Of a stretch of 36,248 nt of DNA, positions 8,533-20,935 are shown in pieces. The translations under genes were made by a program, and so were the position numbers. The DNA comes from Fibrobacterales bacterium. GTDB taxonomy: Bacteria > Fibrobacterota > Fibrobacteria > Fibrobacterales > JAOPTW01. The stretch lies in contig JAOPTX010000092.1 of the NCBI GenBank assembly GCA_051532055.1, forward strand, positions 1-36,248, in the 5' to 3' direction. Below the pieces are notes generated by a model. That model was not told where the DNA came from. It ran no database searches and was given only the letters and a program-made list of their open reading frames with translations. Position 1 is the first letter of the stretch. Every line of letters starts with the position of its first letter.

Positions 8533-10173
8533 ATGAATGTACGAATACACATACTTTTGATCTTATTTACACTTCTTGTTTTAGGCTGTTCAAATAATGC
8601 GGGACCGGATGATGAGTCTTCATCAGAGAACATCTCTTCTTCTGAGGTACTTTCATTATCTGGTGGGGGGACTGGTGATGTTGACAGTGAGGCAGGGGCT
8701 TCTAGTGAAACAGATACTGTTGCTGGTGAGTCAAGTGCTTCTACAGGGGGAGAATCCTCTGAGATAGCAAGTGGTGAGTCGTCAGGCAGTACTGAAGGGA
8801 GCTCTGGGGGGAGTAGTATTGAAGGTGCTGGTGAGAGCAGTGTTGTGGGTGTGAGTAGTAGCGAGGGGCCGAAAGAGGAATTAGTTGAGCCTGCAGATTT
8901 TGATGATGCCGTTGTACAAGGTTATTTGAAGGATGATAAGTTGCCATTACTGTTTGCGAATAACTCTCGGTATAGTGACGATGAGATATTTATTGCAATT
9001 GTCGCAGATAATGCACCAGGGCTCCATAGTGCCCCCGTTTGGTATGATATTGCTCATCAAACAGTTCGGTTGATAAGTGCTTCTGATAATACTGTTGAAT
9101 CGCCCGTTGAGACTGATAGCTGGAAATACCCAGAGATTTTCACAAAGCTAAGTGATATACCTGATAACACTATAGCGATGCCGCGTTTAACAAGTGCAAA
9201 GATGTTTATTTCTTTTAAAAAAATGATGTACATACATTTCCACGATGCCGGTGGTTATGCCGGACCGAGTCATAGCAATCTTTCTGATCCTAATCATGGC
9301 ATACGGTATGAGACTATTGAATTTAATACATCAGGGTACATTGGTTCCACAAAAACAGCGTATGATCAAGAGGATGGCGTTACTTATAACGGGGTGTGGA
9401 TAAATACCAGTCGAGTAGATGCATATCAATATCCTATGGGTGTGGAAGTGTTTGGTACTGATGTAGGTGGTGTTGGGAATGATTATAAAAAAGTTGGTGA
9501 GCTTTTAGAGCATGATGAAATTCTTAATCGTTGGAATAACACCGTTTCGGATCCTTTCAAGGAATGCTATAACGAGCATAAACTTCCTGCAGGTGATGGT
9601 ATTATTTATCAGCCTTCTAAAATACCAGAATTTGGAGTTGCTGGGGAATATAAAAATTACTTTGACCCATATATTGATGAAGTTTGGACTGCATTTAGAT
9701 CTAAAAAAGTTCGATTCTCTATGTTTGATGAAGGCCTTTGGGAGGGCTGGGTCGAAGGTGATGTATTTATGGCAAAACAAATTGAAAAGAAAAATGGTCA
9801 ACCAGGTGATGCAAGTGGAAGTATAGCAAGTAAGCCCTCGACCACTGATGTGATTGAGGGGGCGGGTGTTATGGCTGCAGGTGGTATGTATGATAAAAAT
9901 GTTCAAAAATTTGTTTGTGCTTCACTCAATAGAGGAATTGTGAATCCAGATGCTCCCGACGGTGAGTTTCAGGATTGGGAAGCAGCTGACGAGTTTTTTA
10001 AGCGTGATATATATAATGAGTATGTTGGCTTTTTTCATAATCCAGAAATCAGTTATAATTCAGAGACCTATGCCTTTGCCTATGATGATGTGTATGACCT
10101 TTCATCAACGATACAAGCAACATTTCCAGATAAAATCCGTGTTACCATTGGGGGCTTTGTCGGCATTAAGTAA
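8533..10173 (+). CDS. Beta-1,3-glucanase GH64-family lipoprotein with Ser/Glu/Gly-rich linker
   Basis: Lipobox VLGC after MNVRIH (start 8533); GH64-like motifs YETIEF, WINTSRVDAYQYPM, CASLNRG, YAFAYDDV. Confidence 0.82.
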   Translation: MNVRIHILLILFTLLVLGCSNNAGPDDESSSENISSSEVLSLSGGGTGDVDSEAGASSETDTVAGESSASTGGESSEIASGESSGSTEGSSGGSSIEGAGESSVVGVSSSEGPKEELVEPADFDDAVVQGYLKDDKLPLLFANNSRYSDDEIFIAIVADNAPGLHSAPVWYDIAHQTVRLISASDNTVESPVETDSWKYPEIFTKLSDIPDNTIAMPRLTSAKMFISFKKMMYIHFHDAGGYAGPSHSNLSDPNHGIRYETIEFNTSGYIGSTKTAYDQEDGVTYNGVWINTSRVDAYQYPMGVEVFGTDVGGVGNDYKKVGELLEHDEILNRWNNTVSDPFKECYNEHKLPAGDGIIYQPSKIPEFGVAGEYKNYFDPYIDEVWTAFRSKKVRFSMFDEGLWEGWVEGDVFMAKQIEKKNGQPGDASGSIASKPSTTDVIEGAGVMAAGGMYDKNVQKFVCASLNRGIVNPDAPDGEFQDWEAADEFFKRDIYNEYVGFFHNPEISYNSETYAFAYDDVYDLSSTIQATFPDKIRVTIGGFVGIK

Positions 10174-10183
10174 ATTAAGATGT

Positions 10184-10945
10184 ATGAACTATTTCTTAAT
10201 CCTTCTTTCCTCAGGAATATTCTTCTTAGGGTGTTCCTTAAATAGACTAGCACCAGATATACAGTCAAAAAAGGTATTTAGAATAGCGTCGCCATCATTC
10301 GATCAGGCAATGGCTCACTCTATTACTAAAATCGCATTTGTACCGTTAGAAAGAGCTACTCTGATTGGGAGTGTTGTGGATGAGTGTGAACGTGATACTA
10401 ACTCACTGCAAGAGAGTGCTCCAGAGGGATGTGTAGAGCTCAATGAATCTAATAGTGCTTTTACCTTTAATAAAAAAGTGTATGAACTTCTTCCGGTGCT
10501 TTTTCCAAAAGCTCGGATTACAGAGCTGGTTCCTGGTGTAGGAGATGTACCAGTTAATGATACTCAGTTTTTAGCGCTTGAAAAAAAAATTCGGGAACTC
10601 TGTTCTATGGACTATTATCGATCATTAGAATCAGGACAATATGTAGCAATAGAACCAACTGCAGCGCCATTAAAAAGTGTTGTGACACAGTTGGCTGCAC
10701 GCTATTCGGTTCGGTATTTGATTATGCCTCTAGAGCTCACCGTAAACTTCTCTCTTGATGGTAGGGTTGCTACAGAAACTCTTTTCTCTTTTTGGGATGG
10801 CATGAAGGGTGAATTACTCTATGTCAAATATCAGTATCAGACTCATAGCGCTCCCCAAAGTGGCCTTAATAGCATTGTGCTATCCGAAGAGCCGGGTTCG
10901 ATTCTAGAGGATGTTAAATCGTTATCAAATATCACCACTCCATAA
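10184..10945 (+). CDS. Hypothetical lipoprotein
   Basis: Real start is ATG 10184 (MNYFLILLSSGIFFLGC, lipobox), 10 bp after the GH64 stop; the upstream part of the tracked ORF overlaps GH64. Confidence 0.7.
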   Translation: MNYFLILLSSGIFFLGCSLNRLAPDIQSKKVFRIASPSFDQAMAHSITKIAFVPLERATLIGSVVDECERDTNSLQESAPEGCVELNESNSAFTFNKKVYELLPVLFPKARITELVPGVGDVPVNDTQFLALEKKIRELCSMDYYRSLESGQYVAIEPTAAPLKSVVTQLAARYSVRYLIMPLELTVNFSLDGRVATETLFSFWDGMKGELLYVKYQYQTHSAPQSGLNSIVLSEEPGSILEDVKSLSNITTP

Positions 10946-11146
10946 GGGTACAAGCTCTTGAGGATTTTTAGAAAATCCTGTTAAGAAGGTGTGTAAAAAT
11001 ATTTGCATTCGTAAAATAATTTGCATGCTTTTAACTTTAATAAAATCAGTGTGTTACGTGTTTTGTTTGCTGTTGTGTCTATTGCTTTTACATATCCAAT
11101 AATTAATCAATAGACATTTAAAAGCCCTATTGATCAATTTAGTAGT

Positions 11147-11161
11147 TGGCCCGATACTTGC
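11147..11161 (+). promoter_or_regulatory. Sigma54 (RpoN) -24/-12 promoter
   Basis: TGGCCCGATACTTGC = TGGC-N7-TTGC (GG-N10-GC); IHF-consensus AATCAGtgtgTTA at 11044-11056; tandem near-palindromes at 10992-11026. Confidence 0.72.
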
Positions 11162-11172
11162 GCTATGTTAAG

Positions 11173-11301
11173 GTATATCGTTTAGTACCCTTGCTCTCCA
11201 TCATACCCTGGATGGACAACAAGTACCCCATGTTGTAGTGACGCGATCGCGTATATCACAAATCAAATTCAACTGGAGTGAGGGTACTAGATGCTTTTTT
11301 T
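11173..11301 (+). ncRNA. Putative sigma54-dependent structured small RNA or leader (four-way junction + U-tract)
   Basis: 19-bp closing helix 11179-11197/11275-11293 (G-U pairs valid on + strand only), three internal hairpins, T7 tract at 11295-11301. Confidence 0.6.
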
Positions 11302-11391
11302 ATCCCCCAAAAACCTTGGTATAAATAGTGAAATAGTGGTATTGTAGACCAAAAGAATAATGTTATTGGTGTTCCACTTGATGAGACTATT

Positions 11392-12204
11392 ATGATAAAT
11401 TTTGAAGAGCTCTTTGATACCATACAAGTGCTCCATATTGAGCCGAATGAAGAAAAGTATTCAGCAGAAGAAAATGCTTTTTTAGAAGGTACTGGTCCTC
11501 GCTTTTCTTTTGTATCAGGCGATGCGTCTCTTATGAGTGAGCCCGATGTGATGATGATGGAAAATTTTGATCTCATTGCTATTACTGCATTAGTTGGGTG
11601 TTCAGAAGAGTATATGCAGTCGCTCAACTGGTTTTGTACCAAATATTCCTTTTTACCCATTGTTATTTTTGTTGATCATTATTCAGAAGAAAGTGTTCTC
11701 TCTTACTTGTCACTGGGAGTGCAAGATGTTATTGATATAACAGAACCTAAAGGGGAGGGGAGTCAATTCGAGATTAAGATACTTTCATCTATGTCGAGAC
11801 AATTAAAGGCACGAATTAGTTCAGATAGTGACGACCTCTATCGTTCACTATTTGATTTTGGGTTAGATATTGTTTTTTTGGTGAGTGAGCAAGGGGATCT
11901 CCTCTATGCATCGCCTAACGTTGAGCTATTATTAGGTCAAAGTATTGCGACACTGGTGGGAACTAGTTTTTGCCAGTTGCTCAATGGGGAAACGTGCACT
12001 ATTTTGCAACCTGTTTTTAATTTGGGTGATGGAGGCTATGATAAAATATACCGGACTAAAGGCGTGCTACTGACCAGTGATGGTGAAGAGAGAGGGGCAG
12101 ACATTATAGTGAGAAATAGAGTTAATGATTCAAAAGTGGGTTGTATGGTTGTGAACTGTCATATAGGCCTTGAATCAAATGTTTTAGAAATAGAGGAGCT
12201 GTAA
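11392..12204 (+). CDS. Pseudo-receiver + PAS domain protein
   Basis: REC-like fold (PDVMMME, LPIVIFV, LSLGVQDVI) followed by a PAS domain (YRSLFD...VSEQGDLLYASPNVELLLG). Confidence 0.7.
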   Translation: MINFEELFDTIQVLHIEPNEEKYSAEENAFLEGTGPRFSFVSGDASLMSEPDVMMMENFDLIAITALVGCSEEYMQSLNWFCTKYSFLPIVIFVDHYSEESVLSYLSLGVQDVIDITEPKGEGSQFEIKILSSMSRQLKARISSDSDDLYRSLFDFGLDIVFLVSEQGDLLYASPNVELLLGQSIATLVGTSFCQLLNGETCTILQPVFNLGDGGYDKIYRTKGVLLTSDGEERGADIIVRNRVNDSKVGCMVVNCHIGLESNVLEIEEL

Positions 12205-12206
12205 CA

Positions 12207-13391
12207 ATGGTCCGCTACCCTATTGAGGATCTCACTGATGGATTGGTTTTAGCTGAACCCATCCTTGATAAAAACAGAAAACTGTTAGTTGCTGAAAACA
12301 CGAGTCTTAATGAAAAGCTCATTGGGTTGTTGAAGGAGCGAGGCTATACTTCAATATTAATTCATGTTGCAGGGACAGATACCATTATTCCAAACGAGAC
12401 CATACGGCAAGAACTTAAGTATGAAGTAGCAAGTATCATTGAAGAAGTAACTAATAGTGTGGGGCAGAAAATTGAAAATGCTCAAAAGCAAAAGTCATCA
12501 ATTTTAGAAGTACTTAAAAGCGAGAAGAATAATATTAATCAAGTGATTCAGGATAAGAAAACATTTGAATTGGTTGATAAAATTTTAGATGCTTTAATAT
12601 CTGAGCCTGTTACTTCAATTGTGATAAGCAAATTACAAAATTTTGAAAATGCCTTTTTTGAACATGTATTGCGAGTGGTGGTTACTTCGCTTGCTCTAGG
12701 GATCAAATTTGGTTTTAATAAGTTTGAGTTGACTGATTTGGGTAAGGGAGCTCTTGCCTATGATATTGGTATGCTTGCTGTCCCAGAAACAATACGGAGA
12801 AAGCAAGGGGAGTTGACCGAAGAAGAGTTTTCGGTTTTAAAACAACATACTTTGTATGGGCATATGATGCTTTCTGAACTGCCTAATTTTTCTGCTATGA
12901 GCACAATTATTGCTCTTTCTCACCATGAACATCAAGATGGAACGGGATATCCAAGGGGTCTAAAAGGAAGTAATAAAACACCAGTTAAGGCAAATGAAGT
13001 TCAAGGAACAATCCATAGATATGCTGATATTGTGCGAGCGGCAGATTTATATGACATGTATACTTTTGGGCGGCCTCATTACTCGTTGGCTTTGAACCCG
13101 CAACTAGTTGTTAAAAAATTGGTAACAGAGGCAGGAAAAACAATCAACGCATCAGTATTGAAAATGTTGCTCTCTATCGTCTCTATTTATCCTGTAGGTG
13201 CAAAAGTTAAAATTATTCAAAGTCCTATAGCTGGGTTAGACGGCTATTATGGCGTTGTGGCCAGAATTAATGAAAAAAATATTATGGCGCCAAGTCTTAT
13301 AATGCTAGAGGATAAGGAAAAACAGACCATAAAACCAATTGTGGTCGATATGTCAAAATATAAAGGATTTCAGATTGAATTATTGACTTAA
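12207..13391 (+). CDS. HD-GYP domain protein (degenerate HD motif)
   Basis: N-terminal L.DGLVLAEPI domain; ALAYDIGML, HTLYG, HHEHQDGTGYPRGL, ADLYD, YPVG. Confidence 0.88.
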   Translation: MVRYPIEDLTDGLVLAEPILDKNRKLLVAENTSLNEKLIGLLKERGYTSILIHVAGTDTIIPNETIRQELKYEVASIIEEVTNSVGQKIENAQKQKSSILEVLKSEKNNINQVIQDKKTFELVDKILDALISEPVTSIVISKLQNFENAFFEHVLRVVVTSLALGIKFGFNKFELTDLGKGALAYDIGMLAVPETIRRKQGELTEEEFSVLKQHTLYGHMMLSELPNFSAMSTIIALSHHEHQDGTGYPRGLKGSNKTPVKANEVQGTIHRYADIVRAADLYDMYTFGRPHYSLALNPQLVVKKLVTEAGKTINASVLKMLLSIVSIYPVGAKVKIIQSPIAGLDGYYGVVARINEKNIMAPSLIMLEDKEKQTIKPIVVDMSKYKGFQIELLT

Positions 13392-19825: not shown

Positions 19826-20290
19826 ATGAACATAGAACTCGTATCATACGGAAAACTCAACTCAAAATTTGCCATTGAAGAATTTGCAAAGTATGAAAAA
19901 CGGATGAAGCCGTTTGTCAGCTTTAAGGCAATTGAACTTAAAGAGTCTAAGCGCCCTGATCTTAAGCAAAAGCAAGAAGAGGATTTGCGGGAGTTTGAGA
20001 AAAAGGTGGGGGTAGGTGGTTATACGTTAATTGTACTCTCTGAGGAAGGTAAAAACCTTACGAGTGAGGGAATGGCGAAGCAGATTGAGAAATGGCAGTT
20101 ACGCGGTGATAAAAAGCTCGTTTTTTTGATAGGTGCAGCTTACGGTATTAGTGAAGAACTCAAAAAACGATCAGATTTCTTATTATCTCTGAGCCCTATG
20201 ACTTTTACCCATGATTATGCCCGTATAATCTTTATTGAGCAAATTTATCGTTGGTTTACGATATTGAAGGGACATCCTTATCATCATTAA
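19826..20290 (+). CDS. rlmH: 23S rRNA pseudouridine1915 N3-methyltransferase
   Basis: LSEEGKNLTSE, FLIGAAYG, LSLSPMTFTH..RIIFIEQIYR, GHPYHH. Confidence 0.95.
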   Translation: MNIELVSYGKLNSKFAIEEFAKYEKRMKPFVSFKAIELKESKRPDLKQKQEEDLREFEKKVGVGGYTLIVLSEEGKNLTSEGMAKQIEKWQLRGDKKLVFLIGAAYGISEELKKRSDFLLSLSPMTFTHDYARIIFIEQIYRWFTILKGHPYHH

Positions 20291-20365
20291 TTGTGTTTAA
20301 TGGGTAAGGATCACTTTAGAAATTTGTGATCTTTAATGATTATTTCTCTGAATTGAGTTTTTTAT

Positions 20366-20392
20366 TAAGTCCCATTTTTAACTATCCGATAT
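20366..20392 (+). promoter_or_regulatory. Sigma28 (FliA)-type promoter
   Basis: TAAG-N15-TCCGATAT versus consensus TAAA-N15-GCCGATAA, upstream of the FlgM-like ORF. Confidence 0.6.
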
Positions 20393-20448
20393 CTATTATA
20401 GGACGTCATATTTGGCGAAAATGCTCATTCACCTACGGAGAGCTACGG

Positions 20449-20628
20449 ATGGCACAAGTATCAAAATTTAAGCCCCAATCGGACAAGGGGACCGATGTCC
20501 GGTCTGATCGCGTCGCAGAGATCTCTCGTCAAATCAAAAATGGGACCTACTTTGATGTAGAAGAGGTCGACAAAGTAGCTTCTGGACTCGCAGAGATCTT
20601 TATGGAAGACTATTTTGACAATATCTAA
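20449..20628 (+). CDS. flgM: FlgM-like anti-sigma28 factor (59 aa)
   Basis: GGAG RBS, ATG 20449; DVRSDRVAEISRQIKNGTY..EVDKVA matches the FlgM C-terminal core. Confidence 0.65.
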   Translation: MAQVSKFKPQSDKGTDVRSDRVAEISRQIKNGTYFDVEEVDKVASGLAEIFMEDYFDNI

Positions 20629-20680
20629 TTAGTGCTTTCAAAAAACATCTATAAGTAAAAGCTCTTTTAGCCCATAAACT

Positions 20681-20935
20681 CTACTTCAAGGCGGCTTTAA
20701 TCTTCGCTTTGGTAGAATCAGTCAATCGCTCAGTTACTTCAACATCATCAAAGGCAGTTTTAACACTTTTTATGGTGAGAACTCTTTTAAGAAGGGTGAT
20801 ACTGGCACGAAAACGTCTACAATGAACACAGTAGATATTGTGGAGCCAGAGGCCTAAACGCTCTTTTTTGGTTAATGGGGTTTCAGTCTCTTTTGACATG
20901 AGATAGGTTGCTTGAGTACATTTCATCATCAACAT
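20681..20935 (-). CDS. Zinc-binding (zf-HC2/ZAS) anti-sigma factor
   Basis: MKCTQATYLMS...LWLHNIYCVHCRRF (C...H-x3-C-x2-C); abuts the sigma gene. Confidence 0.9.
   Translation of the reverse strand: MLMMKCTQATYLMSKETETPLTKKERLGLWLHNIYCVHCRRFRASITLLKRVLTIKSVKTAFDDVEVTERLTDSTKAKIKAALK

Follow-up and report, generated by a model that had tools for sequence, protein, structure and literature searches.

We identified what is credibly a new non-coding RNA gene in the genome of a Fibrobacterales bacterium: a small RNA of the sigma54-driven kind, belonging to no catalogued family, which may act through its exposed C-rich loops. We are confident, short of certainty, that it is a real, stand-alone small RNA gene. 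The stretch of DNA analysed (the window) is 36,248 nt long and is contig C92 of the source genome (G000; 5.17 Mb, 94% complete). The element sits in a 446-nt intergenic gap between an unassigned gene at 9950-10945 and a PAS/HD-GYP gene pair at 11392-13391, and both flanks of the gap are coded on the + strand, like the element itself (Table 1). The sole congener in the genome collection (G001) was the main comparison genome; the two are close species, with a median protein identity of 92% over 218 orthologues. Because the structure had been predicted from the source genome alone, comparison with the congener was the main test of it.

Table 1. Features of the element and of the downstream operon (positions in the window; identities are to the congener).
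Feature	Position	Strand	Evidence or remarks
Upstream activator site 1, near-palindrome, predicted enhancer-binding-protein site	10992..11008	+	block 10988-11026 33/39 identical
Upstream activator site 2, predicted	11010..11026	+	18-bp period from site 1
IHF-consensus site, predicted	11044..11056	+	WATCARN4TTR; block 11037-11056 17/20 identical
sigma54 -24/-12 box	11146..11161	+	15/16 identical
Predicted non-coding RNA, about 125-129 nt	11173..11301	+	start from promoter spacing, end at U tract
Closing helix, 19 bp (21 bp in congener)	11179-11197 / 11275-11293	+	compensatory and compatible substitution
Hairpin 1, 5 bp, loop 11203-11210	11198..11215	+	fold; ACCCUG kept, first two loop bases differ in congener
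Hairpin 2, 6 bp, invariant C-rich loop 11222-11230	11216..11236	+	opening cost about 0.5 kcal/mol
Hairpin 3, 4+3 bp, 4-nt bulge, tetraloop	11238..11259	+	fold; pairs invariant, so without covariation support
Single-stranded A/U-rich junction linker, 15 nt	11260..11274	+	opening about 0.1 kcal/mol; 14/15 identical
U7 tract, predicted 3' end, straight after closing helix	11295..11301	+	no canonical short terminator hairpin called
Putative sigma70-type operon promoter: -35-like 11316-11321, TG 11337-11338, -10-like 11340-11345	11316..11345	+	conserved block in a gap of ~53% identity
PAS-domain gene	11392..12204	+	TIGR00229 match, residues 145-244; no Pfam match
HD-GYP-type gene, YD replacing HD	12207..13391	+	PF13487; translation; His also missing in orthologues

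A conserved sigma54-type promoter precedes the RNA

The promoter elements named in the original prediction were all found in place: tandem near-palindromes with an 18-bp period starting at 10993 and 11011, an IHF consensus that fits WATCARN4TTR in both genomes, and TGGC-N7-TTGC at 11147-11161. WATCARN4TTR is the IHF consensus given for glmY in the passages cited here (PMC3045617). At the level of sequence, the element has the conserved -24/-12 box, activator sites and IHF site expected of sigma54-dependent small RNAs such as GlmY, Pxr and NrsZ. The transcription start near 11173 was predicted from sigma54 spacing alone. The motif GTAAAA..ATTTGCA occurs twice in the whole 5.17-Mb genome, both times at this promoter, and the host carries rpoN, 14 strong bEBP domains and three IHF/HU genes.

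Matches to TGGY-N7-TTGC number 493 in the source genome, 71 of them intergenic, and many of the intergenic boxes precede flagellar, nitrogen and chaperone genes. A relaxed search gave 116 intergenic sigma54-like sites that lead into non-coding DNA; ordered by fold z, the element came second, after a lone terminator-like hairpin. We consider the sigma54 promoter credible, and the layout conserved between the two genomes supports the predicted arrangement, in which a promoter of the sigma54/IHF/enhancer type would drive a structured non-coding RNA.

Other sigma54 boxes in the source genome (contigs C10, C49, C8, C94, C67, C79, C12, C24 and C16) lie upstream of flagellin and other flagellar genes, and further boxes in the same contig set precede three ammonium transporters, nirB, grpE, groES, a peroxiredoxin and a spoVG-like tandem, with gene names assigned by eye from the translations. 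A non-coding repeat with an identical sigma54-like box was seen at three places (C45 near 5429, and C89 near 1506 and 12040, - strand).

The search for the activator gave few leads. No bEBP gene was found inside the 36-kb window. With a matrix built from the four activator sites, the highest score ahead of 31 other sigma54 boxes was 9.9, compared to 20.2 and 15.9 here, a comparison that is circular. The activator-site pattern matched in 27 of 296 and 23 of 255 genomes, mostly as chance matches in coding sequence, and none of the matches inspected had a similar RNA downstream. Activator-like sites together with sigma54 sites precede clpB (G076) and htpG (G039), and in the source genome we saw no clear tandem site in front of grpE or groES; a possible link of the activator site to heat shock is thus a weak lead only. 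In this phylum, heat-shock genes seem to be under sigma54 control, and a bEBP gene comes after dnaJ. The activator site may resemble the RocR site.

The RNA is predicted to fold into a junction closed by an end-to-end helix

The predicted RNA folded at -43.7 kcal/mol with a z-score of -4.15, and none of 200 shuffled sequences was as stable; the z-score in the congener was -5.45. The modelled fold agreed with the one proposed originally, a closing helix round three hairpins followed by T7, and added the A/U-rich linker of the junction, which had been omitted. It is the closing helix that contributes most of the fold stability; taken by themselves, the three inner hairpins were no better than shuffles (z of -1.40, with 21/200 shuffles as stable). 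Both C-rich loops are exposed, opening at a cost of ≤0.5 kcal/mol, and that of hairpin 2 is the best candidate for a seed or a protein-binding loop.

The G-U pairs had been said to fix the + strand. Five such pairs are indeed present in the closing helix, whereas the preference by energy is small, -43.7 kcal/mol for the + strand versus -41.0 for the - strand (-45.5 versus -41.4 in the congener). The + strand is therefore assigned mainly from the direction of the promoter, the U tract and the five closing-helix G-U pairs. UACCC occurs at 11186, 11204 and 11224, and GGGUA at 11282. The threefold repeat reported earlier is thus present in the source genome, whereas in the congener only the loop-2 copy survives; some 5-mer was found in three copies in 14.6% of 2000 shuffles.

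Substitutions in the congener uphold the closing helix

The congener keeps the same element layout, with four separate conserved footprints in canonical order. The three promoter blocks (Table 1) and the RNA block (122/130 identical) stand out from spacers that are ~53% identical (22/42 before the enhancer sites, 47/89 in the spacer and 49/93 in the downstream gap). None of the eight substitutions in the RNA breaks a pair. One compensatory change converts C-G to U-A at 11189/11283, a compatible change converts U-G to U-A at 11182/11290, a substitution at 11294 lengthens the closing helix, and the remaining four fall in loops or the linker. When eight changes were placed at random (n = 200,000), the probability that no pair was broken was 0.016, and that there was also a compensatory change was 0.0023. 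The closing helix is thereby upheld as a conserved structure in these two close genomes; across all stems of the fold, 35/37 base pairs are unchanged. Covariation, which had been proposed as a check, came down to the one compensatory pair in the closing helix; it is a single event because there are only two sequences, from close species, and a shuffle control with two rows was uninformative (245/500). The inner hairpins have no covariation support, since none of their 18 pairs varies between the genomes.

We asked how unusual this conservation is. Identity across the RNA was 0.93, compared to 0.60-0.85 in any 130-nt stretch of the flanking genes, and it equals that of the RNA that is very probably the source genome's own 6S RNA (94.2%; see below). 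Genome-wide, 160 of 733 gaps could be compared within 2.38 Mb of the congener, and 62 of the 160 hold a stretch of ≥0.93 identity, such that absolute conservation of this degree is not rare. Measured as contrast with the surroundings (0.30), the gap ranked 14th of 161; three of the 13 gaps with higher contrast are tRNA genes by eye. Conservation is therefore locally clear and, genome-wide, moderate.

These numbers bear on the possibility that there is no functional RNA, and that a DNA inverted repeat, a decayed mobile element or a promoter-region structure has been kept by slow local divergence. The commonness of high-identity non-coding stretches, and the fact that only two close genomes are at hand, are what such an explanation would lead one to see. 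We consider it very unlikely: the sequence is single-copy, its G-U pairs would be mismatches in DNA, one of its changes is compensatory, its local flanks are only ~53% identical, and it is the only near product of a complete and conserved sigma54 promoter set.

The RNA matches no catalogued family and is so far limited to one genus

A covariance-model search of the window with Rfam 15 gave no matches at the gathering score, in agreement with the earlier statement that no Rfam family was recognized. At E-values up to 10 there were six weak matches, in a search that included the c-di-GMP riboswitches, and none overlapped 11173-11301. The same search of stretch L003 also gave no match at the gathering score.

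Several known kinds of RNA were considered and rejected. The 6S RNA family (RF00013) matched in 35/151 genomes of the phylum, and 11/12 of the phylum 6S loci read have a 5' signature characteristic of Fibrobacterota, as does a 170-nt rod-like RNA directly after zapA in the source genome (C7:85991-86160, - strand; 94.2% identical to the congener copy at L237:4179-4348). That RNA is very probably the 6S RNA of the source genome, missed by Rfam. The element resembles 6S RNA in having its ends paired in a long closing helix and in its similar conservation between the two genomes. In contrast to 6S RNA it is shorter, multibranched rather than rod-like, and without the 5' signature. There were no RF00013 matches in the 56 genomes of the order's main family; because of this, and because the 6S RNA of the source genome was missed, RF00013 may miss 6S RNA across the order.

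The SRP RNA of the source genome is located elsewhere (C57:31361-31459). ARAGORN called no tmRNA or tRNA in the window; its two tmRNA calls in the genome are at C79:17170-17533, whose tag looks typical, and at C16:2174-2478, which may be a false call. Y RNA of the YrlA kind has a sigma54 link; no match to PF05731 (Ro60/Rsr) was found in the 94% complete source genome. Short peptides were also considered. An 8-codon reading frame at 11212 lacks an SD, a frame starting at 11291 is shifted in the congener, and an antisense frame of ~20 codons has two non-synonymous changes there.

Searches for homologues recovered the congener and little else. There were no paralogues in the source genome. BLAST over 296 phylum genomes gave matches in five: the source genome, the congener, and three with matches of 19-29 nt, for which there was no model support beyond a promoter-like piece. 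A covariance model (R1), built from two sequences and applied to 160 genomes, found the congener and one promoter-only match (E of 0.2); the outcome was the same for 38 of those 160 without the stricter filter. For phylum genomes outside the 160, most of which belong to one large family, the search was by BLAST alone. A model built from two sequences is weak and may overlook distant relatives. Pattern scans gave 13 metagenome loci, none with model support, and at least 119 stretches in the genome collection; L095 was the sole match among the 80 compared with the model, and it adds no variant because its aligned sequence is the same as that of L003. Scans of viral contigs, plasmids and phages gave no matches. 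The RNA is thus so far limited to one genus. In the literature searched, we found no report of a sigma54 RNA or small RNA for Fibrobacterota; supplementary motif lists could hold a related RNA. A review table covering the whole FCB group gives only 16 Rfam small RNA families (PMC9029176).

A proposed mode of action through C-rich loops

We propose the following series of events. An enhancer-binding protein at the two upstream sites, aided by an IHF bend, would cause the sigma54 promoter to fire, as the conserved promoter anatomy suggests, producing a signal-induced RNA of about 125 nt. Its two ends would zip into a helix of 19-21 bp, the part backed by substitutions, that closes just before the U tract; closing helix and U7 together would end transcription, and the helix would shield both ends and present the two C-rich loops and the A/U-rich linker. 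Needing no chaperone, the loops would then pair in trans with mRNAs at their G-rich ribosome-binding regions; RNase III may first cut the closing helix, by analogy with CJnc190 of Campylobacter. An RNase III gene is present in the source genome, and neither Hfq nor ProQ was found in it (94% complete). Action in trans had been one of the options offered originally, and as a reading it is supported. As to base pairing of the loops with mRNAs in particular, we regard it tentatively, with doubt slightly outweighing belief.

The search for targets brought no clear signal. C-rich loop seeds that target G-rich SD regions are described, also in a Gram-negative host, in the passages cited (PMC12205990). 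Seven start regions are complementary to 7 nt of loop 2, compared to 7.6 expected, which is the level of chance; the site lies at -8 to -13 in five of them. Seed complements were conserved at about background (for example, 12/20 compared to a mean of 54%, with 1135 of 3648 start regions compared). Duplexes below -12 kcal/mol numbered 56, versus 32 in shuffled start regions, a slight excess only. The best single candidate, the second spoVG-like gene, was rejected, its site being lost in the congener. The main SD of the source genome, AAGGAG, is a poor match for ACCCC loops, and the near-invariant stems exceed what a seed needs, which argues against an RNA that is nothing more than a seed.

The main rival to base pairing is that this stand-alone sigma54 RNA is a protein decoy or scaffold, in which the repeated ACCC loops and A/U linker of the junction titrate an RNA-binding protein. 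The paired and protected ends, the invariant stems and junction, and the failure to find a conserved mRNA complement are all consistent with a decoy. There is also a precedent: sigma54 decoy RNAs are said to exist, and GlmY reportedly titrates RapZ. Against it, we have no candidate protein partner, and loop 1 tolerates two changes; a decoy seems rather unlikely. An RNA titrating CsrA/RsmA was rejected. All three GGA triplets are in stems and none in loops, and csrA of the source genome is in a flagellin-fliW-csrA locus, which together make a role as CsrA sponge unlikely.

The downstream operon appears to be independent of the RNA

The original prediction also offered the RNA as a conformational attenuator for the c-di-GMP operon downstream, a proposal that is weakly supported at best. 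The operon appears to have a sigma70-type promoter of its own in the gap (Table 1), although its extended -10-like site at 11337-11345 scores below the promoter-scan threshold and belongs to a motif class that exceeds its controls only slightly (369 sense, 244 antisense and 312 shuffled occurrences, of 1707). In G125, a plain sigma70 promoter stands 42 nt ahead of the ATG of the orthologous operon, and 10 kb of sequence there contained no sigma54 box; the operon stretch of G076 likewise had none. The RNA model had no match beside the operon in G125, G076 or G077. The operon thus appears able to do without the RNA.

Competition of the loop UACCC copies for the 3' arm, the basis of the suggested switch, did not hold up. 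In the congener the arm is GAGUAC, the 5' copy UACUC and loop 1 GAACCC. When loop 2 or loop 1 was made to pair with the arm in the source genome, the fold came to -29.9 and -25.2 kcal/mol, respectively, versus -43.7, a cost of 13.8 or 18.5 kcal/mol. We found no conserved alternative fold that removes the terminator; energy alone cannot speak to a fold stabilized by a ligand or protein.

A cis-acting leader of a different kind is conceivable, in which a ligand or protein blocks the closing helix, acting as a long-range terminator, so that sigma54 transcription continues into the PAS/HD-GYP operon. In both genomes the RNA shares the strand of the operon and precedes it by 90 nt, the closing helix ends 0-1 nt before U7, and prefix folds of 65 and 90 nt pair the 5' part differently before the closing helix forms. 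Nevertheless, besides the costly switches, the lack of a conserved alternative fold, the operon's putative own promoter and its occurrence without the RNA in three genomes, the RNA fold was unchanged in an extended transcript and no riboswitch family matched, so that we hold a leader to be improbable. A pseudoknot with the downstream gap was rejected as well, pairing of loop 2 with the gap being at the level of chance (matched by 39% and 18% of random stretches), which also counts against a leader. It is highly doubtful, too, that the four-way junction is a sensor for a ligand or protein and the end-to-end helix a terminator, the sigma54 transcript being either a closed small RNA or a leader of the c-di-GMP operon; if true, this would amount to an uncatalogued class of switch, one that works through a multibranch terminator formed over a long range.

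The operon has features of its own. The N-terminus of the PAS-domain protein is receiver-like by eye, without a family match. With YD where HD is expected, the HD-GYP protein could serve as a receptor and not as an active enzyme. The PAS and HD-GYP gene pair is common to three distant members of the phylum (L028, L029 and L030), and in all three the HD histidine is replaced (YD or FD), which suggests a conserved binder of c-di-GMP that is not catalytic.

Relation to known small RNAs

The nearest functional model, by analogy, is CJnc190 of Campylobacter jejuni, in which RNase III cuts a long 5'/3' duplex during maturation in a host that has neither Hfq nor ProQ (PMC8687705) and a CU-rich loop binds the SD (PMC8687705, PMC12205990). 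The likeness, as far as the cited passages go, lies in the long end-to-end duplex, the pyrimidine-rich loop, and a host lacking Hfq and ProQ and having RNase III; it implies no likeness in sequence. An antisense partner and a proven target are known for CJnc190, whereas neither was seen here, and the passages on it give no sigma54 control.

GlmY and GlmZ of Enterobacteriaceae share with the element activator sites, an IHF site of the same consensus, a sigma54 box and a small RNA product, although in the passages cited their activator site is TGTC-N10-GACA, and GlmY, unlike the RNA described here, adjoins its activator genes (PMC3045617). The absence of an Rfam match also sets our RNA apart. 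Pxr of Myxococcus is described as having a predicted sigma54 promoter with an enhancer region, three stem-loops, a functional loop, a host without Hfq and a narrow lineage, all of which recall the present RNA; in contrast, it adjoins its activator gene pxrR, and the passages describe no helix joining its two ends (PMC5684412). Here, too, there was no Rfam or sequence match.

If the gene is what we take it to be, a signal-induced RNA would extend the sigma54-to-small-RNA design to the phylum Fibrobacterota, in a genome where no Hfq or ProQ was found, with a reach of two uncultured species. It would also allow termination to be tested at a helix that joins the two ends around about 77 nt.

Other conserved regions

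Two further regions were observed in these comparisons. In the window gap at 20290-20935, a 130-nt stretch is 0.96 identical, compared to 0.59 in the rest of the gap; it overlaps a 100-aa reading frame (20326-20628) and probably represents a conserved small gene or the leader of one. Elsewhere in the source genome, a conserved non-coding stretch at C9:21500-22039 (L191 in the congener) is 0.94 identical, compared to 0.69 around it, with no Rfam match at the gathering score, and we take it to look like a riboswitch.
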